DNA of 64,000 nucleotides. Source: Tortispora ganteri (lineage: Eukaryota). The DNA is taken from contig PPNB01000005.1 in NCBI GenBank assembly GCA_003707115.1, forward strand, positions 124,001 through 188,000. The letters run 5' to 3'. The notes under the pieces were generated by a model. It worked only from the letters and a program-made list of their open reading frames with translations. It ran no database searches and had not been told where the DNA came from. Shown here piece by piece: positions 12,540-57,033 of this stretch (within the stretch, counting starts at the first letter, position 1; each line of letters opens with the position of its first letter). The position numbers and the translations under genes were made by a program.

Positions 12540-12964
12540 TTTCGAATTAACCGTGTGTTCGGAAAAGTGAAAATCTACTACGAAGCCGAACCACTCCGAT
12601 TGAATAGTGTTGTTACCCGGCTTTTTCATTCCAGCCTGGGTCAAGGGTGCGCAGTAACAGAGCGGAGAGCCAGGACGGCGTAATACGAGCGCCAAGGTCT
12701 GACAGTATATATGGAATATGGAGATGGGATACTTGATAGTATATGAAGAAGTCGTAGAAAATTATATATGTGCGGAATGATTGTAAGGGTGTTTAAGAGA
12801 GTGATTTGACATGATATGAGTGGAGAAATTCGGGGCACTTGAGGTGGTTCGTTACTATGCGAATATGCTATATCCAACGGTTCAAAGTCGACGAAGCTGT
12901 TCCCCCACATTATTGGTACGAAACAGAAAACCAACGCGCTAGATACGGCAGTAGGAACGCGAGA

Positions 12965-13513
12965 ATGTCTACTGTGCTGTTTAAGCTAGGGACACTTGCT
13001 ATCCGGACGCTGTCGAAGCCGATTGCGTCGTCTATTCAAGCTCGAGCGACGAAAAGCGGGCCGTTTCGATCCATATGCATCAATCTGGCGCAGGGTGTGA
13101 ATCGGACAGAGCATTTTTTGAGGAACAAGATAAGCGGTAAGAATAAGACGCCGATGCGGCCGTTGAACGATGCTAAAGCTATTGAAACGGGAGCGAAGTT
13201 TCTTTCGGAGACATTTTTGTTCTCTGTAGCGGGGACTTTAATCATATGCGAGAGTCTGAGGACACGGAACGCGAACCAGACTCGGCGGGATGGTGTAGCT
13301 GAGGACATTCTACAGCTTCAACAGGCAATTGCGGAGTTACGGCATGACCTGAACGCTATGCGTCAAGATCTGAACAACTCGGCTGCGTTCAACACAATGA
13401 CCAGCCTAGCGCAGCCTGTACGACCCGGGTATATCGAACAGCAAATATTGAAGGAACGGTCTACTAGCAAATACCGCGAGTCGAAGGAATTGCTGGTGGA
13501 AAAAGGTAAATAG
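12965..13513 (+). CDS. OPA3: OPA3-like mitochondrial protein
   Basis: Family motifs KLGTLAIRTLSKPIA and RPLNDAKAIETGAKFLSETFLFSVAG; start placed at ATG 12965. Confidence 0.88.
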   Translation: MSTVLFKLGTLAIRTLSKPIASSIQARATKSGPFRSICINLAQGVNRTEHFLRNKISGKNKTPMRPLNDAKAIETGAKFLSETFLFSVAGTLIICESLRTRNANQTRRDGVAEDILQLQQAIAELRHDLNAMRQDLNNSAAFNTMTSLAQPVRPGYIEQQILKERSTSKYRESKELLVEKGK

Positions 13514-13621
13514 AGACTAAAACTAGAGTAGATAAATCTAATAGATATTACTATTTTTCGTTTGGACTATTGGCCGATCAATGACCCTTTGGAGCGCAAA
13601 ATAACTTTAACGTTTGACTAC

Positions 13622-14326
13622 ATGGATCTCGATGGGGTGGTGTCGCAGATATACAAAGCTGCCGAATCTGATCAGCCAAATGAACGGTTTGAATCAATAA
13701 AAAGAGATGTGTATCAGATGGAATATGCGATCATGGATACAGATCTACATCCTGATTTGACCTCGCGTAGACCAGAGGTACTCGCGGCTTTGACGACGCT
13801 GAGAGCCACCAGGCTACAGGCGCACTATGATATATACGAACACTACCAAACGCAACGTCGATCGCGGGCTAAAGAGCTGAAAATTGCATATATGGATCAA
13901 CCCACCATGATTGAAGATGCTCATACAAATACCAAAGCGCGTACCAATCTAGAATACTCTGCGGCGGGCATGTTGGCTCAGGAAGCCACAATTAGTCTCA
14001 AGAGCGCGTTGCAAATGGCCCAACAGGAACTGCTAGTATCGCAAATATCGCTGCAGTCACTTGCACAGTCGACGGAAGACCTGTCCCGTGTTACCGCCAC
14101 CCATGACCACACATCTGTATTAACTGCTAATGCTTCGAGTCTGATTTCGAAGCTAAAGGTGAACGCCCTGTCGGACCGCCAGAAAGTGAAATTGTGTCTC
14201 TACTGGATGACTACTGTGTTTCTTTACATCGCCTGGTCCCGCATGAAGGCGCTGGCGTACACAGCAGCAGCCGGATTTGTCGCAATAGCATTGTTCTTCA
14301 AGCTACGAAGCTACATATACAAGTAG
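13622..14326 (+). CDS. SEC20: Sec20-family ER SNARE
   Basis: Coiled-coil SNARE-like segment (MAQQELLVSQISLQSLAQSTEDL...SSLISKL...SDRQ) followed by a C-terminal TM ending WSRM. Confidence 0.65.
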   Translation: MDLDGVVSQIYKAAESDQPNERFESIKRDVYQMEYAIMDTDLHPDLTSRRPEVLAALTTLRATRLQAHYDIYEHYQTQRRSRAKELKIAYMDQPTMIEDAHTNTKARTNLEYSAAGMLAQEATISLKSALQMAQQELLVSQISLQSLAQSTEDLSRVTATHDHTSVLTANASSLISKLKVNALSDRQKVKLCLYWMTTVFLYIAWSRMKALAYTAAAGFVAIALFFKLRSYIYK

Positions 14327-22391: not shown

Positions 22392-23859
22392 TTATAAAGT
22401 TGACCCGGCAGAATCTGGAGTAACTGAAACTCCTTCATTAGAAGCAGACACAGAAGAATCACTAGCAACCGCTGAAGTGACTCCGTCTGATTCAACCTCT
22501 TCAATGTTATCTTGATCTTGCACTTCCTCGACTTTTCCACTAGTAGTATCATCCACATGCCAATATCCGTTATTACCATCGTCACTTTCGTCATTTAATG
22601 AGCCTGTTAGAGCGGAAAGATCACCATCTAGAAACAAGCTTTGAATACGCGACGCAGCGTCTAGTCCCATAGGTGTAGCAAAAAATCCCGCTCTGCCTGG
22701 AAGACCCAGTCTAATACCCATTGAATTATCAGGCGACTCCGCGTGGCCAGTGAAATCATGTACAACAGGCTCTATTGTTTCAAGCGAAGCAGCAGGGCCA
22801 TCATTAGCCTCAACACGCTCTTTAACCATCTGATACCATTCTGATATAGTGTGGCCTTGAAGCAGGGCGACGATCACTATTGTCATATTGTCGCATCCAT
22901 TTCCAGATAAGTCAGAAGCCGGAGCCAGACAATTGTTCATAATATTTTCACATATTTTTTCCAGGTCTTGGCCTTCGGCCACTGAGCGGCGCACAAATTC
23001 CACGACTTGCTGGTTGGTCATACAATCCCATATACCGTCACATGCCAGAACGACAAACTCGTCGTCGGCTGTTATAGTATGTTCGATAATTTCAGGTACA
23101 GCAGATACAATTTGCTCTTCAGGGGGTAAATTGGCAGATCTTTTGAACGAGAAGTCACCGAGAGCTCTGGAGAGGGCAAGGTTGCCGTTTACACGACCGC
23201 TTTCGACCCAGCCGCCTGCGCGGTCGATGCGGAGTTTCTCAAACTCGTTTTGCGGTTTGTGGTCGAAAGAGAGCGGTTTAGCATATCCACGACTACCTAG
23301 CACGGTGCGAGAATCGCCGGCATTAGCGGCGCAAATTAGCGTGTCGGAGAGTAGAATGGACGTCGCCGTGCACCCGGAAGGGTCATTCTCTAATTGCGGG
23401 TAATTTAGTAGAGAGCGGTCGCAGCTTAGATAACTGTCCTTTAGCGCTTGCGGATAATCCTTTGCCGCTAGAGCGGGTTGTTCAGCCAGCAAATCATGCA
23501 AGTTTTTCCCAGCAAACTCCGCAGTAGAGGAGCCACCATGACCGTCGTAAACGGCAAAAAAGCTCAAATGTTCTGGAGATTCGTTGTTCTTATTCACAAG
23601 ATTCAAAATTGCGGCGTGAGCATCTTCCATTGACACACGCCATCCTTGCATGCTAGATACACCATAAGCTACGCGTTTGTCGGAGCCAGACTCAGATTCC
23701 TGTCAATGTTAGTATTCTTGAAGTGTGCGCGTGAGTGCTTTTGTGGAGGTAGGCGGTTTCATCTAAGATTGATCTTTCGCATATCCACGTACTCAAACAG
23801 TTCTACAACAGTCTACTACTTACTTTCTCCGTTATGGGCTCACTTAACACCTGACCCAT
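22392..23859 (-). CDS. PTC2: PP2C protein phosphatase, Ptc2/Ptc3 type; exons 23859-23824 and 23699-22392
   Basis: Spliced N-terminus MGQVLSEPITEK|ESESGSDKRVAYGVSSMQGWRVSMEDAH; DGHGG, LSRALGD, LACDGIWD, GCDNMT motifs. Confidence 0.93.
23700..23823 (-). other. Spliceosomal intron of PTC2 (124 nt)
   Basis: GTAAGT ... TACTAAC-ATTGACAG; the phase-0 join restores the conserved PP2C N-terminus missing from the ORF track. Confidence 0.92.
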
Positions 23860-24124: not shown

Positions 24125-25849
24125 TTAGAATGTAAAAATATTACACACCCCGCGGATGTACAGCCGCCCTGATATCAGTACTATGGTCATGTAGATCATG
24201 TGCTCGGGAGGGTCTTTAAACAGCACTGACTGCTTGTCAACGTATACTTCTGTGCCAGAATCGCGCAGTCGAGCAATCCCGTCCCGGAAACTCGTCTCGT
24301 GGCACATATATCCAATTTTAAGGCAATTAATAACCTTACGCGACTTTTCCTTTGCCTTGCTTCCATGTGTCGCAAACGGGTTCTTGCTGGTTTGGCAATC
24401 GATAAGCTCACAAAGTTTCTGGTATATTCTTTCTGCTCTCACTAGAATATTGAATTCCAAGTCGTTATCTGCTGCCCATTTGCGTCCAAAGTCGCTCAAT
24501 TTAGATTTCGGATGGTATGCCACAAACACATTCAGCCAAGTCAGCGGATCACCCTCAGAAGCCTTGAATTGCGTAATCGCCGTTCTTTTCGTGAACAAAG
24601 ACGTAGATTTTTCTTCTAAAGCCTGCGACATAGCTAAAACAGCGCACACTTCGTGCTCAACTTCTTCCTCTATGGCCCTCAAAATGGTTGTTCCTTCCAT
24701 AGTATTCAGACCGAGCGCAGTCACTTTCCTGCCAAATGAGGTGACTTGGCAGTTAGAGTCAATAGATTCGGTGCTGCGCAGGTATCCCAAGGCATGTGCC
24801 ACTCCAGAAGCCGGCAGTCTGTAATCTTTGAAGTTCGATACATCGAGCAAGCGGAGTACAAGCACATGGTCGTAGAGCGGACCTGAGATAGTAGGTTCGG
24901 TCAAGCGGCCAGACGACGGCGTATACAGACGAAAGCACTGACCAACTACTTTATCCGTAGTAATAGAATATGTTCGCAAAAACTCTTCGTCCGGGGTTGT
25001 AGGTGTAGTGACCATAGCGGGACAGTTATCTATAAAGTCAAACTGTTGCCTAAGTGCGGTGCCGCAATCAATTACGGCAACCACATTAGCGGGAAGAATT
25101 TGTCTTTGAGGCACTCCAGTGGTTACCAGTATGGTTTTGTGAGTATAAAAATCGGTGTCTAACAGCAAGGAAGCCGTAGCGTTAGTAAGGGAAGGAAGCA
25201 CCTGGAGCAAAGAAATGCGGGGCCCGCATTGTTTTGAGAGCACAGCAGATATCTGATGTGCGGATTCTTCATCAGCAACGAGTACGAGTACTGTACAAGG
25301 ATCATAATTTTCAGCAAACAAAGTTGATACCGCACGAGCGGCTAGAAGACACTGCTGAGTGTTCGAGACGTTGGTATTTAGACTGGTAATACGCACAGGT
25401 AGTGGGAACGGCGGTATTTGGAGCACGTTGTCTGTTTTGAGTAAATTAGCAGTTTCTAGTACCACAGGGGCAGAGCTTGAGAGTATGAGAACTTTGAAGC
25501 TGCAGAAAGTGGGATGATTAAGGAGTTTCAGAAGGAGAAGCGTCGACAGGGTGCGTTGCTGCGCTTCGTCGATGATGAGCAAATTCATTTTGGGGGCGTT
25601 TGAGCACATAGCAAAACAGAAAGCGGTGTCGTGCATGTAGCGCAAGTAACGAGATTCAGCAGAGGACTGTAGAATGTGAGATCGTTGGAGATTAGGCTGA
25701 GTGCATATGACAGGGGCGAGAGTAGTTGACGCAAATGCGTGCGGGATTCTGGATGATTTGCCGAAACCCGGCGGGGCGACAAGGAAAGTAATTCGATTTG
25801 AATATACACGATAGATCAAATTGTTTATAGTTTCATTATACGAGATCAT
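24125..25849 (-). CDS. Divergent DEAH-box RNA helicase-like protein (DHX35/Gih35-like) with degenerate catalytic motifs
   Basis: Walker [35 protein letters not shown]2/OB-like segments [11 protein letters not shown] and QSVLF. First ATG is 25849. Confidence 0.72.
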
Positions 25850-26217
25850 TGCGAAGACTGATGTTTTGGTGGTTTTTCGTATGAGTTTGGGGAAGGCGGT
25901 CTGTGGTTGCAATTGTGCTTTGAGCAGTCTTCTTCGTCACTAGAGCTAGAATCGCTATCTGAACTACTGGAGTCTTCGTCTGAACTCTCGTCAAAAGCTT
26001 TCGGACGATGATATATGCAACAGATCTTACTTTTCTTCTTGTTGAGATGCTCGTTGTCTACGATATCTTCGACCCAGCGGACAGTTCTTCTTGACGGAGT
26101 GTCTTCCGCTTGCTGTTGTTGCTGTTGATGCGTTTCACCTGTCAAATGCAATTGCCTAGGTTGTTCGATTTGTGTTTGAGTGCTTGAATGGTCATGAACA
26201 AGGCGATTTTGCGCCAT
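25846..26217 (-). CDS. YPI1: PP1 regulator Ypi1 (inhibitor-3/PPP1R11)
   Basis: RTVRW (RVxW PP1-docking motif), [18 protein letters not shown], acidic Ser tract, SPNSYEK. Likely start ATG 26217; an in-frame ATG also lies at 26295. Confidence 0.93.
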
Positions 26218-26403
26218 CTGGTATGTGTCAAGAGAGTAGTGGAGTGACAAGTGGGATGCAGGTGGGTGGATAAGGGGTTCCCAGTCATCAAACATTAGCC
26301 TGTAGTTTTAAAAACCTATCATAATTTGTGATTCTCCTTTCAAGTACATCAAATAAGTATTTTGGCAAGTAGGTTTGGCTGCTATAACAGCTAAATATTA
26401 AAC

Positions 26404-26979
26404 ATGCTTGCACCACCTGACTTGTTCGGAATGGTCGAGAACTCATTGTATCGATGCGCGGTGGTAGAACCGGTCAACTTTGCGTTCCTGAACACTCTCG
26501 AACTCAAGATGATCTTATACTTCAATCAGGAAAAACCATCTAAACATCTCACCGGATTTATGCAGGAACATCACATCGAGCTTGGAAAGTTCGGCCTGAG
26601 GCCCTGGCGTTCGATAGCTGAAGATTGGAAAGTACTCCGCGACGATGTCATACAAGATGCTCTTTCCTTCATACTCGATTCTTCTAAATACCCTATACTA
26701 ATTATCGATTCGACCTGCACATTCGTTGGAGTTTTAAGAAAACTACAGCACTGGTCATACACTTCAATCGTGGCAGAGTATCGTATAATGAACGGCTCAA
26801 AATCGCACTACTGGAACGAACTATATTTAGAGATGACTCACATTGACATCGACTGCCAGGGACGAGTCGTCATCGGCAACAGAAACGCATTCGAACTGCC
26901 GAAAAACCTTCCCGATTGGTTTAGGTACCAGCTAGACTTGTGGAATGCCGACAAGCAAGCCCTCATTGAGGATTCGTGA
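26404..26979 (+). CDS. OCA4: Oca4-like Siw14-family pseudo-phosphatase
   Basis: MLAPPDLFGMVENSLYRC, NFAFLNTLELK, GVLRKLQHW...EYR; no HCx5R catalytic motif. Confidence 0.78.
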   Translation: MLAPPDLFGMVENSLYRCAVVEPVNFAFLNTLELKMILYFNQEKPSKHLTGFMQEHHIELGKFGLRPWRSIAEDWKVLRDDVIQDALSFILDSSKYPILIIDSTCTFVGVLRKLQHWSYTSIVAEYRIMNGSKSHYWNELYLEMTHIDIDCQGRVVIGNRNAFELPKNLPDWFRYQLDLWNADKQALIEDS

Positions 26980-28359: not shown

Positions 28360-31300
28360 TTTGCCTACAGTTGAAAATGGCGAACTTGCAAGGAACGACA
28401 AGGTAGTATATTCACCCTTTCGTGGATATTCCTCGTATGACCTGAAAAATCTACAGAGGGTTAAGGATGATTAAGGTGTGAAAGTTTGAGTGTGTCAAGT
28501 GCTCCCTTTATCTCTATCTAGCCGCTTGCTGGATGGACCGCCTTCCCACCTTTGTGTAGCCGTGCAACGCAGTTGAGAAATAATGCACATATACCACAAC
28601 AAATTTCAATAGTTAGATCACAAAATATCAGTTTCTGGGAGCCTCGTACGCCAATGGTCGATGTTAATGATCATAAAGTCGTTACTCTCGTGATCACTTG
28701 CAGCGCGCTCCTCCCCAGCAACCAACATATGATCAGATCTCGCACCAGCTATCGAAAGGCTAATGAATTAGATGCAACGGGATATATTTCGTTTTGGTCG
28801 GTATTTTCAGCTGACATCCAGTTGGAGCCTAGTCCACTATTACCGCTGCATTATACGGTGTTGATAGAGTTTTGCAGCGGAAGAGATAGGTGATTGGACG
28901 TGATACGGCTATAGGGGGCACGCAAAGGCTAGGCAAGAGCACATTATGAAGCCTTGTTGTTCTATTCCAGTGGCTGTAATAATACGGCAACAAACAGATT
29001 AAACTCTCGCAGTAGCGGTTCTAGATTTATACACTGGATCGTCCAGCAGTGTAAGCATCAATATCAATTTATCACTCTCGAGGAAGTTAGCGACACCAGA
29101 AAAACTGTATTACCACTAAGGTTTCAGAATCAACTTTATTTGCTCGAGGAGTCAGGTTCAGTAGTGCAAAAACAGCACTAAAAAATGGGTAAGAAAATAA
29201 AGAAACATGCGAAATAAAATGCAGCAGACAACAGGTCGAGACTTGTAGGAAGCACTGTGATCAGGTGTGCCGAAAGACGTGATGCAGACTCAGTTAATTA
29301 GAGTGACGAATAGCTAATGAGCAGCGACTATCGATCCCAAGGTTACGCAATCACGATACCGAAATTAGAAGTCAAGTCAGTAAGGGCGGCCGTGAGAGCA
29401 AGACCATGCCGTTCGCAGGAATATATAACAAGAAATACGGTTTTGCAGTGCTATCACGGGCAATTGGTGTAATGTTCGCGGCGGTCGATGTCAGTAGATA
29501 CAAAGCTTACATATCCAACAAACCCCAATTCCGGGCATTGGACTGCAGCCGATTAGTAGAGTAGTAGCAACAGCAGCTGCAGCAGCAATCAAAATAGAGT
29601 CCGGAGCATGATTGTGCCAAGTGTCGGGAATAAGCTTATATTGAGATACTTACACTGTTATGCATTTTTCAGAGAGTTAAGTTTGCACTTTAATTTCAGT
29701 GAGGTTAGCTTGGCAAAAGCGATGTGAAATGAAATTAGCCAAAATTCAAAGGCGCAATTTTAATAAATAGAAAATGAGGAGCTTTTTACGCGGTTAAAAT
29801 TATGAGATAGCGAGCGATGAGATCATAAACGAAGACTGCGGTAGCTGGTCAAAATCTTGAATCCCAAGAAGTTTGGATGCGCAATATTGCGCGCGATTGA
29901 GGCGGCTAAGAAAAAAAGCGTGTTTGTAGCGAATGGAAAATGTCAAAAGGATTAGCGGCGCACGGAACAAAAGAGGTCCAAAAAAAGAAAAAAAAAGAAA
30001 ACAAAAAAACAGGAAGGAAGCGCGTCAAAGTGACTTATTTTGCACGTTTTCACAACCTGGCCGTTCCATAAGCGGCCAGCAGTTTCCGCATTAGATATGG
30101 GTATGTACACCAAGCTTTTCTTTATTTCTATTGCGATTGAAATTTGTTTTCAGGCGGATATTTTGTTGCAAGAATTCCTTGTTTGAGTGACGTAGATTTT
30201 CCATAAGCGCTCAACAACAGAAGCGGGGATAAATGGGCGGCATATGTGGTAGGTACATACAGGCTTATGATATTAGTGTTTTAATGAACTTTTACGCGTT
30301 ATGCACGTTTAAACATCAAATACTATTTTGAGCAAGGCACTATTATATGAAAGAAAAGGCTAAATAGGTGCGAAACGGTAAAAGATAGAAGCCAAATACA
30401 AGAAAAAAGACGCGACTTGCATAAAGTTTTACTGCGTGTTAAGTTAGGGTAAGGGTTTTTACTTTTTACGGTTACATTTGGCTCTAATAATTGTTGCAGG
30501 TAAGCGGAGCGGAAGCAATTTTTTTCGAATACCACGAGTACCACGAGTGACGCAAAATGTGGTGATGCTTATGAAGGTCGTTATAGTCTAGGCGGAGATA
30601 ATCGCGATTTTACCTGAGGGCGTAAACGCCAAAAATATGGCGCAAAAGTTGACGACAAGACGATAACTGGTCTCGGTAATAGATAGGAAAGTACTAAAAG
30701 CGACTGCTTTGGCGTATTGGAGATAGAGTTTTCTTGCTATTAAAGGTTGAGCGTGATAGAGTTTCGGTTTTTTCTTTTATGAGGGCTTTGGTTTAACAGG
30801 TGTGGATACAAAAAAAAAGCAGTAATGTTAGGCCTACAAAATATCTAGAGCATTTCCGGCAGACCAGCCTAGACCTTTATGCACGCATGCTAACATAACT
30901 TTGAATCTAGTGTTTTTTTGCTACTTCTTCGGATAAAAATAGACCATACAGCTTATGAGCGGGCAAAAATATTGCAATCAATTGATATCGATAAGTCTTC
31001 AATTAGAACTTAAGTAGTTTATTGATAATCGACTATTATTGTCTATAGTCCTCTTGTAATGAGTTCATTACCAAATCGATTTGACCTAGACTTGCTTGAC
31101 TAGACCAATCCGCGCGTAAACACGAGTAATTTAGCTCGAGATATATTAACTCTGGTGCCTTAGCTTTGCTATTCGCTATCCAATACAAGTTCCGGGCACT
31201 TTAGCATAGCTTCTTTATTTGCACTACCGATTAGTTTAGTTAACTAGCACCTAATAGAACCCCTTGCTATATTACTACAATTATCAAATTTAGCCTGACC

Positions 31301-31541
31301 TGCTTTTGTTACTGTATATTATTCTTAGTGGTTTGATTGCGGCCTACCGATTTTTTCACGTTACATTCTTTCACGCTACGCACAAATCCATATTATCCTC
31401 AGGTCTTTCTCACTATAAGGTTTCTTTATAGTACTCTTATTGGTTTACTGCAACTAATTTATCTATTTTAGGCAATTTTAAACTTTCTGCTCTCTACTGA
31501 TTTTAGATTAATACCTAATACACACAACATACAAGAACTAT

Positions 31542-31559
31542 TATATATATATATATAAA
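31542..31559 (+). repeat. (TA)8 microsatellite ending in TATAAA; candidate TATA box of the C2H2 gene
   Basis: TATATATATATATATAAA read directly. Confidence 0.6.
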
Positions 31560-32265
31560 TCTCACACCTGTGGTGCGTGTATCTTGTTCCTTTTTTTCCC
31601 TGTATCATCAGATATATTCAATTGCGAATATCTTTCTCGATTGCTGAAGTATCTTGTCTCAATACTAGGCGTTCTATATCAATATCTAGAAAGCCTTTCA
31701 TTTTCCGTTTCGCGGCTTAGCAATTCTTATCCGAGCCGAACCTCGCGGCTCGTACAAGAAGAAAAACACCGTGTAGTGTCACGCACAGAGCTTTATTCTC
31801 TAGCCTCTTTCGACATTCGCCATCCTTATCATTGCTATTGCAACAAAGACCGCTTAAACGAGAGTTTTCTTGCTTTTTGTTCGTTCCAACTTGTCTTTCT
31901 TTTTACTATTCGGACAATTTTATCCCGCTTCTTGCGTATCTATCTATCCAAACTGTATCACATTCGCACCAAGAAGGCCTAAAATTATACCACCACTACC
32001 TTGCCGATCGATTACACCTGAACTTTCTTTTTACTTTTTTTAGCCATATTAACTTTTTGGCACGGAAACCTTATTAGGAATTTAAATTTTTTCCTCACAC
32101 CAGAAGAACCCTGCGAGTATTTATCTTGACTTTATCTCTCGATTTTGCTCACTATTTCTTCTTAATTTCTTTTCTTTCTTTTTCTATCTGGTCATTCGTC
32201 ATTTTTGTAAGTGACTTGCTTCACGCTCAGCACCACATTGTCCTTCTTTGACCGTTCAGAAAACT

Positions 32266-33669
32266 ATGTCTCCTCAATTGCAACAGCACACTAGACATAT
32301 GTCTTTGGCTGACCTTTCGATGACTTGCCCTCCTACACCAGGAACAACCCATTGTTGCGATCCTAACATCCTCTCAACTCCTGTTACTCCTCTTGAACAG
32401 CGTCCAATGCGCAGCCTATCGTGTGATTTTTTTTCGCACTCAACTAGCATATCGGACTTCTGCACTCCTGACTTGACTCCAGATATCTTCAAGGATCTTA
32501 CTGTCGATGACACCACTCACGACTCGTCTTCCTCGTCATTCTTTCCCGATATCGACGCTAGCTCTCCTCTTGTCTATGTTGGCGGCTCGTCAGACTTCCT
32601 CACCACGCCTTCGCACTTCGCAACGAACGATATCGCTCCGCCTACACCCTTCGAGTCTCACCCGACTTTGCTTTTCCAAGATTTCGTCTTCGACCAGAAC
32701 CGCGACTCGTTTATGAACGACATCTCATTCAACACAGCACCACCTTTGAGCAGATCTACTTCTGCATCCTGTGTACCCACTCTCCGCTCCAAGAAAATTG
32801 GCAAACACAGTCGACATAAGGCAAGTCTCCAAATGACTAGGACCGAAACTGAACCCCTTCCTGGCCTAACCCGTGTCGGTAATAGACCTGCTGCTATGCG
32901 TTCCAGTTCGTTCGCTGCCCCAGAAGGTTCTAACCCTTTCTACACCCCTACTTTCCTGGCCTCTTCGCCTTCTTCTCCAAAGTCTCGCGCTTCGGTAGCC
33001 GCCTCACCCGCCGTGTGTAAACGCTCTCACCGCAGAACTAAGAGCAAAACTGTACCAGCTTCCCCTTTACTGGGCGCAAGCTTAGAAGAAGTTGTCAATC
33101 GCCAACGAAAAGGCGGATCATTCTCCTCAACTGTCTCTTCAGTCCCCTCTTTGACTTCTGCTTCTTCTGATACTTCAGGTATGAGCCCCGTGTCGCTAGG
33201 TTCTTCTGTCTCTTTTACTGACGAGCAGCCCATTGTGCTTTCACTGGATGATAAGCCTAAGGCAGCGATGGCGGCTTCTTTAGCCTTGCAACTTTCTGCT
33301 ATTAACGATTCTGATGATGAGGCTTCTGGCAAGCCTATCTCCTCCAGATCTCACAGATCCAAAGATGTCCACGATGCTGTGGCTGGTTCTACCCGCACTC
33401 GAGCTACACGCGCTGCTGCAAGAGTTTCGCGTGTAGAAGTTGATCCGTCCGAAGACAAACCTCATGCATGTACTGTATGCAATCGCAGCTTCAAGCGCCA
33501 GGAACATTTGCGCAGACATATGCGTACCCACACTGACGAGCGTCCTTTCTCTTGTGATGTTCCTGGTTGCAACAGACGTTTCGGTCGCTCCGATAACCTC
33601 AGAGCACACAAACGTACTCACTTAAAGCCCGGATCCAGAAACGGATTCTTCAAGGACTTGGTGGTATAA
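32266..33669 (+). CDS. C2H2 zinc-finger transcription factor with Msn2/Mhy1/BrlA-type recognition helices
   Basis: Two C-terminal fingers: CTVC...[10 protein letters not shown]...H and CDVPGC...[10 protein letters not shown]...H; long Ser/Pro-rich region. Confidence 0.85.
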
Positions 33670-35693: not shown

Positions 35694-36566
35694 CTATTCG
35701 ACCGTATCTACTTCGTCTAGCAGTGTCTGGTAGGAGAAGTCGGGTGAACCATTGTAGAAGTCGGAGATCAGTTTGAGTCTACGCTGTCCACGCGCCGTAG
35801 AGAGGTCGGCTGTGTAGAATTTTTGCATTGATAAAAGCAGAAACTGGACGTCGGAGGTGCTAATAACGTCAGTGTCCACCTGACCTGCCATTAATACCAA
35901 ATTCTTCTTATGACTGAGCAAGTCTGAATGGAATGATATCATTGAGTGCGGACGGGCAAATTCTTGGTGCAGTTTGTACTCCTCGAGTGGCGTGATAATC
36001 AGATGAACAGTATGTCTCTCTGGAAATGACCATTGGAGGTAATGCATTTCATAGCCGTTATCCCGAGGAACCGGCAGCAAGAACAAAGGGTACTCCCTGG
36101 CGACCTGTCGCATTCTGGCATAAGTGGTAGGATCCAATGCTGCCGAGACACTGTATTCGCCCTGGTGTCGAGCACGCCATAAATATTCTATTGATTTTTC
36201 GTCTAACTCGATCATTTTCTCGACATCGACGAAAGAGTCTAGAGTTTTAATCTTTTGGGATTCGATGTTGTTAGTTTTTGTGTTTCTGGCGGTCGAAGTA
36301 GAGCCTTCAATGGCTGAAGATTCCGGGCTGGATTTATTTAGTTTCTTTTCAAACAAATGTTTCATCTCAGGAGCAACATGTTGTTTCGGTTTTGCGGATG
36401 CGCGTTTTATGAGCTCTTCTGTGGATATGCCGAGTTCTTTCGCTTTGGCTTCGATTTGATTTATGTATTTTGAGGTCAGTTCGGATTTGCATCGTACAGC
36501 GATTCTCAAGGGCAGTAGAGGAGCATAAAGGCATCGCGACCGACTGAACAAAGTAGTTCTAAGCAT
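35694..36566 (-). CDS. ATP11: F1-ATPase assembly chaperone Atp11
   Basis: Presequence; IKTLDSFVDVEK, YPLFLLPVPR, EMHYLQW, LEEYKLHQEFARPH. Confidence 0.9.
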   Translation of the reverse strand: MLRTTLFSRSRCLYAPLLPLRIAVRCKSELTSKYINQIEAKAKELGISTEELIKRASAKPKQHVAPEMKHLFEKKLNKSSPESSAIEGSTSTARNTKTNNIESQKIKTLDSFVDVEKMIELDEKSIEYLWRARHQGEYSVSAALDPTTYARMRQVAREYPLFLLPVPRDNGYEMHYLQWSFPERHTVHLIITPLEEYKLHQEFARPHSMISFHSDLLSHKKNLVLMAGQVDTDVISTSDVQFLLLSMQKFYTADLSTARGQRRLKLISDFYNGSPDFSYQTLLDEVDTVE

Positions 36567-36872
36567 AATAAGGTAGTCTTTGTATTGGGCTGTTGTGGAG
36601 CGAAGAAGGGTACAGATTCTGTCGAAGATGAAGAGTTATAGTAGGATGTATGTTGAGAGTTACCCGATTGGGACACAGAAGCAGCCAAAAGGATGACAAT
36701 AGGGAAGGAGAGTAGCCAGGACGGTGATTGGTGCCAGCAGAAAAGGTCGTAGCAGTGAAAATATATAATAAAGCCTCCTTAGAGCTGAGAGTATGGATTT
36801 TGGGCACATAAAAGGGAGGCGAATCAGGAAGAGGGGATTGTGGTGCTGTTCGATGAAGAATGAGCCAACCGG

Positions 36873-37520
36873 TCATTCAGGATGTTGTCTGCGCTGTTCT
36901 GGAAACCACCATGCAGGAGGTGCAAGAGGTCTAGAGCCAGATGCCAGAGACGGGTATATGTCCTCAAAGAAAAAGTAGATGTGACCGACGGCAATACCTA
37001 CTATATCTGCGGCGGCGAGACCGCGGTCTCTAAAGATAGACGTGGCCAGAAAGGCCCAAGGAAGGAAGGGTGCTCTGAAGACGAAGAGTCCCAGGAAAGA
37101 GACTTGAACATGTGGATTTCGGCGGGACCAGATGTAGACTAGTGCCAATGCGAGCGGAGAGCCAAGTATAGTAAGCGAGAAGAACGAGGAGACAGCGATA
37201 AGAGTGGCACTACATACAAGGATAAGCCATAGGAAGTCTGTAGTTTTTGTGTATCCCTCTTCGATCATCTGACAATTGCGGGCAAGAAAGTATAAATGTA
37301 TACATAATTCGAGGCTGAGCGGTCCGTTATAAAGGAAAGTGGTGACGATCCTCCATAGCTGTAGCTGCTGGAATGCAGTGGCAGCAGTATAATAGAGCTG
37401 GAACTCTGAGATAATGTTAGCTTGGACGAGCACAGATGTAGCAATTGATCCAAGAATCCAGTAGCGGGTAACAGGTGGTACGCCAAAGAACCATGCTTCT
37501 AGTGGGATGGCGTTGTCCAT
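36873..37520 (-). CDS. DER1: Derlin (ERAD rhomboid pseudoprotease)
   Basis: VPPVTRYW, QLWRIVTTFLY, YIWSRRNP, FRAPFLPW, GIAVGHIYFFFED. Confidence 0.9.
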   Translation of the reverse strand: MDNAIPLEAWFFGVPPVTRYWILGSIATSVLVQANIISEFQLYYTAATAFQQLQLWRIVTTFLYNGPLSLELCIHLYFLARNCQMIEEGYTKTTDFLWLILVCSATLIAVSSFFSLTILGSPLALALVYIWSRRNPHVQVSFLGLFVFRAPFLPWAFLATSIFRDRGLAAADIVGIAVGHIYFFFEDIYPSLASGSRPLAPPAWWFPEQRRQHPE

Positions 37521-46051: not shown

Positions 46052-46555
46052 CTAAAGCGCTAAAGAATATGTATACTCGTCCTGAACGTTTTGTGCGCCC
46101 CAAAGGACCATACAAGAGAGCATAATTAAGGAATTTGCTGCAACATTTGCAGCACCCATGTAAACGGTGCCGGAGGTATAGGTGGGCATTACGTACTTAA
46201 GTACGAGGACGACAACGGAGCCGGCAAGACCGCCTGCGAGGAGTGCGAAACCAAAGAAAAGGACAAGACGTGCACGCCATGTTGCAGAACCAGAATAATA
46301 GTCACCAGTTAGAGTGTTTTTGTCTACACTATTTATGACTATGAGGCCCATAGTAGAACATATAGAGGGGATCCAGTCTGGGAATGTGACATGGATAGTA
46401 GATCCGTTTTTTACGCTGTGAGAGTAGAGCGCTGCATCTAGAATGAGCCAAAAACCAATAGCAAACATCGCACCGGATACATAGATACCGAACGACCGCA
46501 AAGTCGAGGCGGACGGCAAAATTGACCGGATATTGAACTGAAATGCGGCTGGCAT
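46052..46555 (-). CDS. VPS68: Vacuolar protein sorting protein Vps68
   Basis: GIYVSGAMFAIG, HVTFPDWIPSICST, WRARLVLFFGFALLAGG, EYTYSLAL. Confidence 0.9.
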   Translation of the reverse strand: MPAAFQFNIRSILPSASTLRSFGIYVSGAMFAIGFWLILDAALYSHSVKNGSTIHVTFPDWIPSICSTMGLIVINSVDKNTLTGDYYSGSATWRARLVLFFGFALLAGGLAGSVVVLVLKYVMPTYTSGTVYMGAANVAANSLIMLSCMVLWGAQNVQDEYTYSLAL

Positions 46556-46692
46556 TATGGTGGAAGAAAGGCGAAATAGTGGTGGGTACCTCTTGTTTGG
46601 ATTATAGGCTGGCAACGGGCCATTACCTACCCAAAAGCCTGGTGACAGACAGAAAAACCTTACTTTTGACACCAGTCTTTTTTAAATCAGCG

Positions 46693-48048
46693 ATGCTAGA
46701 CATATATTCATTTCTCGAAGAGAAAGGCGGGAACCCAGAGGCAATTAGGGTGTCGCAGAAAGCACGCGGTGCGCCTGTAGAGATCGTTGACGAGATCATC
46801 AAGCAGTACAAGGACTGGACGAAGACCAAGTTCGATCTCGATGAATTGAATAAACGTCAAAATAAAATCCAGAAGGATATTGGACTAAAATATAAGGCAA
46901 AGGAGGACGCTACCGAATTGCTTGAACAGAAGAAGGCGATTGAGACCGAAAAACAGTTGCTTAGCGCTTTGGCCGACGACCAAGACAAGCAATTAAAGGC
47001 TAAACTGAATACCGTTGGCAATATTGTGCACTCGTCAGTGCCTGTGTCCATGGATGAAGATAACAACGAACTCATCCGCAGCTGGGCACCGGAAGGCTTG
47101 TCAGTTGAAAAGAAAAATTGTCTTTCGCACCATGAAGTTCTGACTCGTCTTGATGGTTACGATCCAGAACGCGGCACCAAGATTGTTGGACACAGAGGAT
47201 ATTTTCTCAAACAGCATGGTGTCTTCTTGAACCAAGCTCTTATCAACTATGGCCTGCATTTTCTTGCCGAAAACGGCTATACTGCACTACAGGCGCCTGT
47301 AATGATGAACCGAGACGTCATGGCTAAAACTGCCCAACTTTCGCAGTTCGACGAGGAGCTATACAAAGTGCTTGATGGCGAGGACGAAAAATATCTCATT
47401 GCCACTTCCGAGCAGCCTATCTCTGCTCTTCATTCGGGTGAATGGTTCGAACAGCCTGCCACTCAACTTCCTTGTCGTTACGCTGGCTACTCTTCATGCT
47501 TCCGCCGTGAAGCTGGTGCCCATGGCAAAGATGCTTGGGGTATTTTTCGCGTGCACGAGTTCCAAAAGATCGAGCAGTTCTGTCTCACTGAGCCAGAAAA
47601 ATCGTGGGACGAGTTTGATCGTATGATTGGACTTTCTGAGAAGTTTTACCAATCGCTTGGTCTGCCGTACCGCGTTGTAGCCATTGTTTCAGGCGAATTG
47701 AATAACGCTGCTGCCAAAAAGTATGATCTTGAGGCCTGGTTTCCATTCCAGGGTGAGTACAAGGAACTTGTTTCATGTTCTAACTGTACTGATTACCAAT
47801 CTAGGAACCTTGAGATCCGTTGCGGTATCAAGAAGATGAACGAGAAGGAGAAGAAGTACGTGCACTGTCTGAACTCTACTTTGTGTGCGACTGAGCGTGC
47901 ACTCTGCTGCGTTTTAGAGAATTATCAGACTCCAGAAGGACTTATTGTGCCTGAGGTTTTACGACCTTACTTGCCCGGTGCGCCTGATTTCCTTCCGTTT
48001 ACAAGGGAGCTGCCCAAGGACTCTACTTCGCAGAAGCGCAAGAAATGA
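46693..48048 (+). CDS. SES1: Cytosolic seryl-tRNA synthetase
   Basis: MLDI start, YLIATSEQP, FRREAGAHG, ELVSCSNCTDYQSR, LNSTLCATER. Confidence 0.97.
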   Translation: MLDIYSFLEEKGGNPEAIRVSQKARGAPVEIVDEIIKQYKDWTKTKFDLDELNKRQNKIQKDIGLKYKAKEDATELLEQKKAIETEKQLLSALADDQDKQLKAKLNTVGNIVHSSVPVSMDEDNNELIRSWAPEGLSVEKKNCLSHHEVLTRLDGYDPERGTKIVGHRGYFLKQHGVFLNQALINYGLHFLAENGYTALQAPVMMNRDVMAKTAQLSQFDEELYKVLDGEDEKYLIATSEQPISALHSGEWFEQPATQLPCRYAGYSSCFRREAGAHGKDAWGIFRVHEFQKIEQFCLTEPEKSWDEFDRMIGLSEKFYQSLGLPYRVVAIVSGELNNAAAKKYDLEAWFPFQGEYKELVSCSNCTDYQSRNLEIRCGIKKMNEKEKKYVHCLNSTLCATERALCCVLENYQTPEGLIVPEVLRPYLPGAPDFLPFTRELPKDSTSQKRKK

Positions 48049-48817
48049 GCAGGGTATTGATGAAATTGTTCAAACTTTCCTTGTGTTCGCTCTCCCCGTA
48101 GAGCTGCTGCAGGGAGCGTGCTAGAATTAAGTAATGCTTTGCAATTGATGGATTTTCGCGTAGAGTGAATAACATGAACGACCAGCCGGAAACGTCATTA
48201 ACGTGCGTTGAACACCATTCCCAGGTCATTTGGGCGATACGATCTAGGTTGACTGTAGTCCATTTGTCGTTGCGTAGCATGTATCGTGCATGAAGCCAAG
48301 CGTAGTAGTTTGACAGGTGAAATTCACCAGAATCACGCACCAATTGCAGTTCCGTGTCAAGATCGACGGAACTCGGGTTTTCCGCTTGCAACTGCGTAAT
48401 AACCCAACGTCGGTGATCCCATAAGATAGAACTTTTGTTTACCTTATTTATCCGGCAGGCTAGCAGTGTCGCAAGTACGTACAGTTCATGAACTAGCCAG
48501 TCAGATCTCTGTTGAAGCACACATTTGCGAATATTGACGGCAGTACTGTGGTTAGGACAGCATAAAATCACTACAAATGTCAATTGCATTGCCAGGTTAT
48601 GTTGCGTGGACAGATTAGGCATGATCTGTTTCAGTTGCGCCGCCGATTGTGGGAGGATAGTGTATAATGACTTTTGATCGATAAATAAACAGTTCTCATG
48701 CAATTCTAAAGGGTTTGACAGCCGCATAATTTCTACATGATGACTTATATTAGTAAATATATCACCTAAAAAAGTAAAATAAAACTTACATGTTAGTGTT
48801 GGAGTGGTAGACTGCAT
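48023..48817 (-). CDS. Protein prenyltransferase alpha-subunit repeat protein (Ecm9/PTAR1-like); start uncertain
   Basis: PFTA-repeat motifs NKSSILWDHRRW, HLSNYYAWLHAR, HVNDVSGWSF. Confidence 0.7.
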   Translation of the reverse strand: MQSTTPTLTCKFYFTFLGDIFTNISHHVEIMRLSNPLELHENCLFIDQKSLYTILPQSAAQLKQIMPNLSTQHNLAMQLTFVVILCCPNHSTAVNIRKCVLQQRSDWLVHELYVLATLLACRINKVNKSSILWDHRRWVITQLQAENPSSVDLDTELQLVRDSGEFHLSNYYAWLHARYMLRNDKWTTVNLDRIAQMTWEWCSTHVNDVSGWSFMLFTLRENPSIAKHYLILARSLQQLYGESEHKESLNNFINTLLISCASAK

Positions 48818-55389: not shown

Positions 55390-55986
55390 ATGATTGAAGA
55401 GTGTTCACGGTTAAACAAAATAGCGCTACAGGGTCCATATGGAACGTACCAGGAAAGCATTGATTTAGCAACAAATGAAGGGAACGAGACGAGTAGTTTG
55501 AGCAATATGAATTGTACTACGTATAATGGATTCAAGAGTTGTTCAACTACATCTATATACAAAAGAAGACATCGTCGTGCTATGCCTAGTCTACAATTAT
55601 CAAGTAAACACAAATTACCATCAAGAACGGTTAAATCTGCAACACTTGCAAAAGATTTAACAATGCAAGATATTGGACTAGTATGTTTATCACCACTTAT
55701 TTATAAGAGTTTAACACCGACAATGCAGGAAGCATTGAAAAGTGCTAATACGATCGCTGCTGAACAAAGAGCGTTGATCGCTCGTAATGAACTGGTAAGC
55801 TCCTCTGTCGAAGATGATGAAAGTGATTCGGAATATTATGATTCTTATAGTACTCTACCAACTCCATGTGCATCTTCAACAACAATCCCAGATATTTCTG
55901 ATGTATTTGAAGACGGTTCAGTCAAACCCACCCTGATCCCTGAACGACCGTCTTTTTCACCACTTACACCTACATTCCGCTACTGA
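55390..55986 (+). CDS. Hypothetical protein, function unknown
   Basis: About 198 aa ORF filling the EPL1-CDC43 gap; low-complexity with one helical-looking block (DIGLVCLSP...MQEALKSANTIAAEQRALI). Confidence 0.55.
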   Translation: MIEECSRLNKIALQGPYGTYQESIDLATNEGNETSSLSNMNCTTYNGFKSCSTTSIYKRRHRRAMPSLQLSSKHKLPSRTVKSATLAKDLTMQDIGLVCLSPLIYKSLTPTMQEALKSANTIAAEQRALIARNELVSSSVEDDESDSEYYDSYSTLPTPCASSTTIPDISDVFEDGSVKPTLIPERPSFSPLTPTFRY

Positions 55987-56064
55987 GCCGGTCTCCTTTC
56001 TGCATATCCACCTGATACGCGTATATAGCATTCATTCACATTCTATAAATTTGCATGTAGTCTC

Positions 56065-57033
56065 ATGACAGTAGACAACTTGTTCAAGTTCCATTTGGGG
56101 CTATTACCGCCACAAGCCGTTACAGAAGATTCTAATCGGCTAGCAGTCGCTTACTTTGCCATATGCGGATTCGAACTCTCAGGTACGCTTTCAGATGTCT
56201 GTCCAGATGTACTAGATTCATGGGCGCGTACAGTGTCTCTTAATTTAATTGATTGCATGGCATTCCGTGGAAGCTGGAGCATGAATCTCGGCGTGCCCTG
56301 TGTTTACGATTGTCCGGACATAATGGGCACGCTGTTCGCCTTACAGGTTCTTACTCTTCTTGCTCGACATGGGTCATCTAATGCCACTGAAACACTTGAG
56401 TCTATAAATACTGCTAAAACCGCCGATTGGTTGCGTAAATGCGTCCAACCAGATGGTTCTGTTGCCGCCCGGGTCCGTGATGACGGCACACCGATCAGTG
56501 AAGTCGATTTGCGGTTCACTTATGCCGCATGTGCTATCCAGCGATTATTGCACATTGACGCACTAGACGGTGACAAGATAACTGCATACATTGCGCGATG
56601 TGTTGCTTTCGATGGCGGGATCGGCGCTTTCCCGGGAACCGAAGGTCATGCCGGGACTACATTCTGTGGTCTGGCAGCTTGCCGTTTGCTTGATCGTGAC
56701 CTCACAACACTGCCATTCATTTCTACAACAAGGTTCCTTCACAATTTACAAGGATCCGGGTTCTGCGGCCGTATAGGCAAGCTCGAAGATACATGCTACT
56801 CTTTCTGGGTAGGTGGTAGTTTAGCGCTGTTAGAAATAGACCGACCACCAGTTAGTTTCGCTGCAGAAGACGATTTTTTACGACGCACAGAAGATAAACT
56901 CACTGGTGGACATTCACCGCATCCAGAAGGTCCGCCAGACTTGATGCATTCTTGTCTTGCCTTGGCTGCACTGGCCCTACGAGAGAATAGGTTTGACCCT
57001 CTAACGTCTCTTCCTACATGCGATACAAATTAA
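56065..57033 (+). CDS. CDC43: Prenyltransferase beta subunit, most like geranylgeranyltransferase-I beta
   Basis: DLRFTYAA, FDGGIG, EGHAGTTFCG, GRIGKLEDTCYSFW, PDLMHS; N-terminal DSNRLAVAYF. Confidence 0.8.
   Translation: MTVDNLFKFHLGLLPPQAVTEDSNRLAVAYFAICGFELSGTLSDVCPDVLDSWARTVSLNLIDCMAFRGSWSMNLGVPCVYDCPDIMGTLFALQVLTLLARHGSSNATETLESINTAKTADWLRKCVQPDGSVAARVRDDGTPISEVDLRFTYAACAIQRLLHIDALDGDKITAYIARCVAFDGGIGAFPGTEGHAGTTFCGLAACRLLDRDLTTLPFISTTRFLHNLQGSGFCGRIGKLEDTCYSFWVGGSLALLEIDRPPVSFAAEDDFLRRTEDKLTGGHSPHPEGPPDLMHSCLALAALALRENRFDPLTSLPTCDTN

Follow-up and report, generated by a model that had tools for sequence, protein, structure and literature searches.

In the compacted genomes of the microsporidia Encephalitozoon cuniculi and Antonospora locustae, transcripts overlap and have separate 5' ends near the ATGs, and 3'-end signals can sit in the downstream coding sequence (CDS), according to the account in PMC2803860. 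The same source describes true head-to-tail CDS overlaps in E. cuniculi as very rare once start codons had been corrected. A different arrangement is reported from green algae (Chlamydomonas, Chromochloris), whose polycistronic loci have short upstream ORFs, median inter-ORF distances of 212–260 nt and a product ratio governed by the upstream ORF's Kozak-like sequence; the evidence presented in PMC7896298 comprises Iso-Seq, proteomics and in-vitro translation. In the victorivirus HvV190S, fungal ribosomes reach the RdRp frame from the CP frame at an AUGA tetranucleotide, which requires an H-type pseudoknot directly upstream, within a 38-nt element, as described in PMC6631646. Potentially bicistronic transcripts have also been reported in yeasts (bioRxiv 10.1101/399394).

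The locus described here lies in a 64,000-nt stretch of Tortispora ganteri DNA (the window) and belongs to a free-living budding yeast that is far less reduced than the microsporidia. It shares with them spacers that are very short or absent, so that transcripts necessarily enter the neighbouring CDS. With the algal loci it has in common a short upstream ORF, a close downstream ORF in another frame and an upstream start context as the likely controller; unlike them, its two ORFs overlap, and just behind the upstream stop the sequence looks like a 3' flank. The victorivirus shows the same AUGA, but in a viral RNA and not in a nuclear gene pair. Among yeasts, two conserved nuclear genes on the same strand seldom show a stop/start overlap.

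Two genes sharing four bases

YPI1 occupies positions 26217-25846 of the minus strand (123 codons plus TGA) and ends ...TCG CAA TGA, with its stop at 25848-25846. On the same strand a helicase-like ORF of 574 codons, DEAH-family and DHX35-like, runs from 25849 to a stop at 24125, in the -1 frame relative to YPI1. The sequence-only reading had proposed an ATGA overlap between the two, and the sequence and the ORF list bear this out: the helicase start (25849-25847) and the YPI1 stop have the four bases 25846..25849 in common. No other in-frame ATG is able to open the 574-codon ORF, and upstream of 25849 the helicase frame stays open for 29 codons without a further ATG. An ATG across the stop arises automatically wherever a gene ends NNA TGA, and the window contains a second ATGA, at 36873-36876, where the DER1 stop meets a 105-aa ORF without a family. 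The YPI1/helicase case is non-trivial in that its ATG leads into a real, conserved gene and no other in-frame ATG precedes the P-loop. This geometry places the helicase leader necessarily inside the YPI1 CDS and the YPI1 3' UTR necessarily inside the helicase CDS.

The assignment of the upstream gene to YPI1, also made in the earlier reading, is clear: the protein matches the family of regulators of type-1 protein phosphatase (PF07491, PPI_Ypi1) with E=4.8e-23 and 81.1 bits, against a cut-off of 27. In an alignment of 6 sequences, the core starting VRW contains columns that are invariant across the fungal homologues. The T. caseinolytica orthologue, CANCADRAFT_46027, is 90% identical and ends in the same SSQ; since both proteins measure 123 aa, we place the start at 26217 rather than at the upstream in-frame ATG at 26295.

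The closest relatives of YPI1 and of the helicase are themselves adjacent in T. caseinolytica (CANCADRAFT_46027 and 46026, whose locus tags follow one another on a single 2.61-Mb contig). Beyond Tortispora, 80 YPI1 loci, taken mostly from distant organisms and 34 of them at least 4 kb long, were queried by tblastn with 4 canonical DEAH proteins and the helicase of the window; none gave a match, and on this sampling the adjacency is not widespread. A search of metagenome contigs for relatives of the helicase returned 68 pattern matches, none of which was confirmed.

The helicase-like protein and its first 87 codons

Searched with phmmer against the PDB, the 574-aa ORF matched 9l5s_z (1.6e-21), human DHX35 (1.1e-18) and DHX16 (5.3e-17), the two best being DHX35 orthologues; the protein may be an orthologue of DHX35 or of another DEAH paralogue. 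An AF2 model, computed from an alignment of canonical helicases, reached a pLDDT of 82.7 and a pTM of 0.80, and Foldseek aligned it to 9esh_z (TMq 0.75) and 9l5s_z (TMq 0.73), with E-values down to 9e-32. The predicted fold has the full RecA1-RecA2-winged-helix-helical-bundle-OB architecture of the DEAH spliceosomal helicases. The earlier label "DHX35-like" accordingly holds for best matches and domain architecture, but not for the catalytic motifs, which are degenerate. In the alignment, the segments that we take to be motifs I, II, III and VI read GFGKSS (residues 28-33, keeping GxGK[ST]), DEAQ for DEAH, SSS for SAT and LRTYSITT for QRxGRAGR. Motif V, TTGVPQR, also departs from DHX35 and its DEAH relatives, as do a deletion of ~24 residues after motif Ia, the missing N-terminal extension and the missing Pfam match: no family was found at E<=0.01, including DEAD, Helicase_C, HA2 and OB_NTP_bind, the only hit being DUF2677 at 0.015. 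Given DEAQ, SSS and LRTYSITT, all three also aligned in the T. caseinolytica relative, the protein is probably catalytically impaired. That relative, CANCADRAFT_46026, is the only close one to turn up among 1.84 billion representatives; over residues 88-571 the two proteins are 82% identical, without gaps.

Codons 1-87 of the helicase (25589..25849, minus strand) specify a helix, strand 1, the P-loop GFGKSS, TQP and YMHD, and they are absent from the T. caseinolytica gene model, which begins at Met88. Taken at face value, that model would allow an overlap that is never used: translation would begin at Met72, 81 or 88, or the gene would be decaying, and codons 1-87 would be an open relic serving as spacer, 3' UTR or leader. 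We consider this improbable. It agrees with the degenerate motifs and absent Pfam match, with the non-coding-like composition of codons 1-20 and with the E. cuniculi precedent, where, of 129 CDS overlaps that had seemed to exist in head-to-head or head-to-tail orientation, start-codon correction is reported to have removed 120 (PMC2803860). In codon usage, codons 1-87 (0.078) fare no better than the probably spurious 105-aa ORF (0.052), a comparison that is uninformative. An unselected frame of 87 codons would, however, be expected to close, and the gapless identity of residues 88-571 between species argues against a pseudogene. Further, in an N-terminal HMM built from 14 canonical DEAH proteins, residues 9-52 score 16.5 bits, their helix, strand, GxGKS and TQP falling where the profile has them; none of 2000 shuffles reached that score (best 5.1). 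In the AF2 model, residues 1-50 have pLDDT values of 77-94, and a start at Met88 would remove the three predicted strands 20-24, 47-51 and 69-73 from the RecA1 core. As for the Met88 model itself, gene callers commonly avoid same-strand CDS overlaps, and we infer that it weighs little.

In the alignment, the N-terminal extension of 40-90 residues seen in the relatives is absent, and the helicase begins exactly where the conserved core starts; a search for N-terminal helicase fragments among shorter proteins found none. Because the first 87 codons are significantly homologous to the beginning of the helicase core, the overlapping ATG at 25849 is likely the helicase start, and the public T. caseinolytica model probably lacks 87 codons.

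Possible routes from one mRNA to two proteins

The arrangement could allow a bicistronic mRNA. A transcript from the YPI1 promoter would span both ORFs, and some 40S subunits would pass both the YPI1 AUG and the AUG at 26195 and start at the helicase AUG. This is possible, and in our judgement somewhat unlikely. The features on which the earlier reading had built were found as stated, namely a single intervening ATG (26195) between 26217 and the helicase ATG, C at -3 for YPI1 and G at -3 for the helicase, and GAC-G at Asp-Glu pairs, so that 3 of 3 such pairs in YPI1 avoid GATG. Leaky scanning is physically plausible here, the intervening AUG being weak (T at -3) and opening just 17 codons (26142..26195, minus strand). 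Also in favour are the shortness of the upstream ORF, an overlap too tight for a classical promoter to fit in, and the adjacency kept in T. caseinolytica. Precedents may be seen in the algal polycistronic loci described in PMC7896298 and in the potentially bicistronic yeast transcripts of bioRxiv 10.1101/399394.

ATG content bears on the same question. Of 40 genes, YPI1 is the one with the fewest ATGs for its length: the 369 nt after its start contain 2, the helicase start included, where CDS windows of equal length average 6.9 and 353 of 10112 such windows hold two or fewer. Much of this appears to be a family trait: an internal Met is absent from 25 of 120 YPI1 homologues, and Leu replaces the common Met in 35 of 119, so the scarcity is mostly an effect of family composition, as far as the homologues indicate. 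Synonymous resampling, by which 3.8 or 3.1 off-frame ATGs would be expected where 1 is observed, left a marginal signal (P=0.044 and 0.091), which ranks YPI1 third of the 40 genes. Nor is its start context unusually weak: the -3 base at the 40 first ATGs in the window, which are first-ATG guesses as starts, is A in 20, C in 9, G in 8 and T in 3, so C is ordinary and the Kozak context does not discriminate. Budding-yeast ribosomes use the first AUG efficiently, which also counts against leaky scanning, and adjacency in two close species tells little when a DEAH gene flanks none of the distant YPI1 loci searched. Finally, leaky scanning needs a transcript that the 3'-flank-like stretch behind the YPI1 stop would cut. 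In its fullest form the proposal would have the AUG-poor 372-nt YPI1 CDS double as the leader of a DHX35-derived pseudo-helicase, with output set by leaky scanning and the arrangement fixed in the genus Tortispora; this too we hold as a tentative idea, more probably wrong than right.

Termination-reinitiation would require that ribosomes finishing YPI1 restart on the overlapping AUG, as between the victorivirus CP and RdRp frames. Reinitiation after a 123-codon ORF is inefficient without helper elements, of which the UGGGA-type motif is one; this 18S-complementary motif (TGGGA) is absent from YPI1. The AUGA tetranucleotide is the exact motif of victoriviruses in their fungal hosts as given in PMC6631646, but folding of the 121 nt at this junction gave no structure signal to set beside the viral pseudoknot: z is +0.64, and 146 of 200 shuffles do as well, in a prediction limited to pseudoknot-free folds. 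We regard reinitiation as very unlikely.

A fusion of YPI1 and helicase by -1 frameshifting is the most doubtful of the routes. The heptamer C CCA AAC, at 25885..25891 on the minus strand and 42 nt before the YPI1 stop, has the canonical X XXY YYZ form in the right frame and lies within the 29 codons over which the -1 frame is open upstream of the helicase ATG. Chance should yield one such heptamer in about 256 codon positions, by our estimate ~0.1 in 29 codons, and no stimulatory structure was found downstream of it (MFE -5.2 kcal/mol, z +1.19, 178 of 200 shuffles as good). We know of no frameshifting precedent for CCCAAAC, which also counts against this route.

Splicing was considered separately. 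A GTAAGA at about 26030, a candidate donor for splicing into the helicase frame, was rejected, as it sits inside the invariant KKKSKICC core of YPI1. The TACTAAC at 25181-25187 falls within codons whose product can be aligned to T. caseinolytica and to DEAH proteins; the window holds 8 TACTAAC against 6.6 expected. One clear intron was seen locally, in a PP2C gene, with GTAAGT and a TACTAAC 8 nt before the AG.

Proposed overlapping mRNAs in a compact genome

The window is very compact, with short spacers in all orientations, and 37 of its 44 ORFs could be assigned to a Pfam family; scans for Rfam families and tRNAs returned nothing. Stop-to-ATG gaps of the 15 tandem pairs are -4, 78, 108, 145, 160, 265, 265, 306, 306, 370, 501, 502, 660, 970 and 982 nt, and convergent stops stand 28-66 nt apart, one convergent pair overlapping by 26 nt. 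Upstream of YPI1, a divergent spacer of 186 bp (26218..26403), presumably a shared promoter region, separates it from a tyrosine-phosphatase-family gene on the plus strand (26404-26979; PF03162, E=2.3e-32). The T. caseinolytica genome is given as 9.2 Mb with 4657 genes in PMC5499181.

Base composition changes across the junction. Directly after the YPI1 stop, the 60 nt at 25786..25845 (minus strand), which are also helicase codons 1-20, are 75% A+T, a value matched or exceeded in 0.1% of 60-nt CDS windows, and include TATAAA and TGTATA. With dinucleotide models trained on 38 sequences, their 3'-flank versus CDS log-likelihood ratio is 3.6, reached by 0.37% of 2431 CDS windows. The A+T richness comes mainly from the choice of amino acids (12 of 21 residues are I, Y, N, K, F or M, as in 0.14% of windows), and a synonymous test was not significant (P=0.13). 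On the other side, the last 20 YPI1 codons, the 60 nt upstream of the helicase ATG (25850..25909, minus strand), are A/C-rich and G-poor (8% G); their 5'-flank versus CDS ratio of 1.62 is reached by 3.9% of 2431 CDS windows and falls in the upper half of true upstream regions, and no stable fold was found in them. An AT-rich, unstructured sequence at the start codon would also aid initiation on a bicistronic mRNA. With its 3'-flank-like stretch, the locus fits YPI1 mRNAs that end within the helicase ORF more closely than it fits a dedicated bicistron.

These observations lead to the hypothesis that genome compaction in a Tortispora-like yeast abutted two genuine genes, giving overlapping but separate mRNAs and no translationally coupled bicistron, a reading to which we would give an even chance. 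Mechanistically, cleavage and polyadenylation of most YPI1 transcripts would take place over the first ~100 nt of the helicase ORF, which are AT-rich. The helicase, in turn, would be translated mainly from its own transcripts, starting inside, or reading through, the G-poor 3' part of YPI1; an internal transcription start within the 372 nt of YPI1 is an assumed step. We favour separate mRNAs because the 60 nt on either side of the junction look like flanking sequence, a 3' flank downstream of the YPI1 stop and a 5' flank upstream of the helicase ATG, because the window is compact and both genes are real, and because the scarcity of AUGs is largely a matter of family composition. Overlapping transcription with separate 5' ends is, moreover, what compact eukaryotic genomes show in the account of PMC2803860. 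Counted against separate mRNAs are the extreme ATG density of YPI1 and the weak AUG at 26195, as well as the origin of the A+T richness of codons 1-20 in amino-acid choice and the small training set of the dinucleotide models. The sequence clues are mixed and appear to lean slightly against one mRNA serving both genes.

The YPI1/helicase pair offers a clean natural test of how promoter and poly(A) site are placed without a spacer in a compact yeast genome. If it were bicistronic, leaky-scanning polycistrons would extend from green algae to budding yeasts, and the pair would represent a compact design for expressing two genes. GPATCH1-DHX35 is described as having a role in splicing fidelity, rejecting aberrant substrates (bioRxiv 10.1101/2021.03.19.436190). 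The presence, in an early-branching and relatively intron-rich lineage of yeasts, of a DHX35-type fold whose catalytic motifs are disabled may bear on the loss or repurposing of spliceosomal fidelity factors.

The YPI1-helicase overlap

On the minus strand, the 123 codons of the YPI1 ORF run from the ATG at 26217 to the TGA at 25848-25846, and the 574 codons of a DEAH-family, DHX35-like ORF (the helicase ORF) from the ATG at 25849-25847 to the stop at 24125. The end of the first and the beginning of the second share the tetranucleotide ATGA (25846-25849), an overlap described in the sequence-only reading and borne out by the sequence and the ORF list. It follows from this geometry that the helicase leader lies within YPI1 and the YPI1 3' UTR within the helicase. 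The helicase frame stays open for 29 codons 5' of its ATG, with no further ATG.

The naming of the upstream ORF as YPI1, a type-1 protein phosphatase regulator, is secured by a match to PF07491 (E=4.8e-23), whose 81.1 bits far exceed the cut-off of 27. The best of its 422 homologues (E<=0.001) is T. caseinolytica CANCADRAFT_46027, likewise of 123 aa, with 90% identity and SSQ again at the C terminus. Shared length, identity and C terminus place the YPI1 start at 26217 and not at the in-frame ATG 26295, and the same match makes an assembly error at the position of the stop unlikely.

Among 1.84 billion representative sequences, the helicase ORF has one close relative, T. caseinolytica CANCADRAFT_46026 (82% identity, 398/484, gapless), the second-best match being only 25% identical. 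The two genes are neighbours in T. caseinolytica too, where a check of synteny found CANCADRAFT_46027 adjoining CANCADRAFT_46026, their locus tags following each other on a single contig of 2.61 Mb. Two genuine genes, then, have been shown to share the ATGA.

Character and start of the helicase-like protein

No Pfam model matched the helicase ORF. A phmmer search of PDB sequences returned 37 DEAH-helicase matches, headed by DHX35 orthologues (9l5s_z, 1.6e-21; human DHX35, 1.1e-18) and followed by DHX16, DHX8, Prp22 and Prp43. A 16-sequence alignment yielded an AF2 model (pLDDT 82.7, pTM 0.80) that superposes over its full length on DEAH helicases; for the S. pombe chain 9esh_z the TMq is 0.75. 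The earlier label of DHX35-like holds for the top matches and the DEAH fold, with DHX35 itself a candidate orthologue.

Aligned with DEAH proteins and CANCADRAFT_46026, the ORF keeps motif I (GFGKSS), TQP and YMHD, while motif II reads DEAQ, motif III SSS, motif V TTGVPQR and motif VI LRTYSITT. About 24 residues are absent after motif Ia, and the ORF also lacks the N-terminal extension, of 40-90 residues, seen in its relatives. Judged on these residues, we take the product for a DHX35-like protein in which nucleotide binding may persist, but which is probably not an active helicase.

A start further downstream, or decay of the gene, would leave the overlap unused; the T. caseinolytica model indeed begins at the equivalent of Met88, and correction of starts often abolishes apparent CDS overlaps, as it did for 120 of 129 in E. 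cuniculi (PMC2803860). Against the Met88 start, residues 9-52 by themselves reach 16.5 bits with an HMM drawn from 14 canonical DEAH proteins and fall at the right place in the profile (helix, strand 1, P-loop, helix, strand 2, TQP); the best of 2000 shuffles scored 5.1 bits. Starting at Met88 would also delete the RecA1 core strands of the AF2 model (residues 20-24, 47-51 and 69-73), whose residues 1-50 have pLDDT 77-94. The codon-usage score of the N-terminal codons was uninformative. The overlap coincides with the beginning of the helicase core; from sequence and model we hold with good confidence that 25849 is the start, and consider a downstream start or gene decay improbable. The public CANCADRAFT_46026 model probably lacks 87 N-terminal codons including the P-loop (window 25589-25849), presumably because gene callers shun same-strand overlaps.

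Start contexts and translational signals

The sequence-only reading proposed a bicistronic mRNA read by leaky scanning or reinitiation, and its observations proved accurate: the sole ATG between the two starts is at 26195 (T at -3, opening 17 codons to 26142), position -3 holds C before the YPI1 ATG and G before the helicase ATG, and all 3/3 Asp-Glu pairs of YPI1 use GAC-G. Among 40 genes, ATG density is lowest in YPI1. The 369 nt after its start hold 2 ATGs, helicase start included, where same-length CDS windows average 6.9 (353/10112 have <=2 and 46/10112 have <=1). With the protein fixed, 1 off-frame ATG compares with 3.8 expected from window codon usage (P=0.044), or 3.1 when its own codons are permuted (P=0.091), and YPI1 ranks third of the 40 genes in this synonymous-codon resampling. 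Internal Met is missing from 25/120 homologues, and Leu replaces a frequent Met in 35/119. The resampling and these homologues indicate that the scarcity is mostly family composition. Nor is the YPI1 start context distinctive, since of the window's 40 first ATGs 9 have C at -3, against 20 with A, 8 with G and 3 with T. Leaky scanning of a bicistronic mRNA strikes us as possible but rather unlikely.

Stop-restart coupling at the AUGA appears very unlikely. The victorivirus AUGA restart requires an upstream pseudoknot (PMC6631646); RNA folding at the junction was no better than shuffles (z +0.64; z +1.19), and a motif scan found no TGGGA in YPI1. A -1 frameshift would yield a YPI1-helicase fusion, and a C CCA AAC heptamer does lie in the YPI1 frame 42 nt 5' of the stop, within the open stretch of the helicase (-1) frame. 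With no structure downstream of it and a chance expectation of about 0.1 for such a heptamer in the stretch, we rate the fusion as extremely improbable.

Possible overlapping transcripts in a compact window

Directly 3' of the YPI1 stop, 60 nt have an A+T content of 75%, which 0.1% of 60-nt CDS windows attain, and contain TATAAA and TGTATA, which we take to be yeast 3'-end signals. Their 3'-flank versus CDS dinucleotide log-likelihood ratio, 3.6, is met by 0.37% of 2431 CDS windows and would rank among the top third of genuine 3' flanks. On the other side of the junction, the 60 nt preceding the helicase ATG have 8% G and a 5'-flank ratio of 1.62 (met by 3.9% of CDS windows). The A+T richness stems from amino-acid choice, 12/21 residues being I/Y/N/K/F/M, as in 0.14% of windows; synonymous choice does not account for it (P=0.13). 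Across 25300-25900, plus-strand GC skew runs at +0.33 to +0.38, much higher than elsewhere nearby, so that on the coding strand both the RecA1 region of the helicase and the 3' end of YPI1 are C-rich and G-poor.

We give about an even chance to the reading in which YPI1 and the helicase would be expressed as overlapping but separate mRNAs. The nearest known systems are overlapping transcription in compacted genomes (PMC2803860) and green-algal polycistrons (PMC7896298); potentially bicistronic yeast transcripts are already described (bioRxiv 10.1101/399394).

Several other features of the window merit mention. Around 23700-23830 (minus strand), the PP2C gene opens with a short 5' exon (ATG 23859), and its intron, with GTAAGT and a TACTAAC only 8 nt from the 3' AG, provides a local reference for splice signals. 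A second ATGA joins the stop of DER1 (36873-37520) to a 105-aa minus-strand ORF (36559-36876), which fills the whole 306-nt spacer between DER1 and ATP11 (35694-36566) and overlaps the ATP11 start by 8 nt; it has no Pfam family, resembles pyrimidine-rich spacer and is probably a chance ORF. The seryl-tRNA synthetase ORF (46543-48048, plus) overlaps a convergent prenyltransferase-alpha-repeat ORF (48023-48817, minus) by 26 nt at its 3' end and, by first-ATG assignment, a divergent UPF0220 gene (46052-46555, minus) by 13 nt at its 5' end, reflecting either compaction or mis-assigned starts. On the plus strand, 78 nt separate the stop of a 198-aa unknown ORF from the prenyltransferase beta ATG (55390-57033), and 108 nt the OPA3 stop from the Sec20 ATG (12857-14326); both pairs might give overlapping or read-through transcripts. 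A 3.9-kb gap (28360-32265) in the otherwise dense window, upstream of a C2H2 zinc-finger gene (32266-33669), holds neither an ATG-started ORF of at least 100 aa nor a tRNA or Rfam match.

Genes are packed very tightly across the window, and 37 of its 44 ORFs have a Pfam family. Measured from first ATGs with introns ignored, stop-to-ATG gaps of the 15 same-strand neighbour pairs are -4, 78, 108, 145, 160, 265, 265, 306, 306, 370, 501, 502, 660, 970 and 982 nt; convergent stops lie 28-66 nt apart in five pairs, and one pair overlaps by 26 nt. T. caseinolytica can be cultured and has been sequenced; its genome comprises 9.2 Mb with 4657 genes (PMC5499181). Given the compactness of the window, the YPI1-helicase junction is the far end of a gradation along which transcripts already have to enter neighbouring genes.
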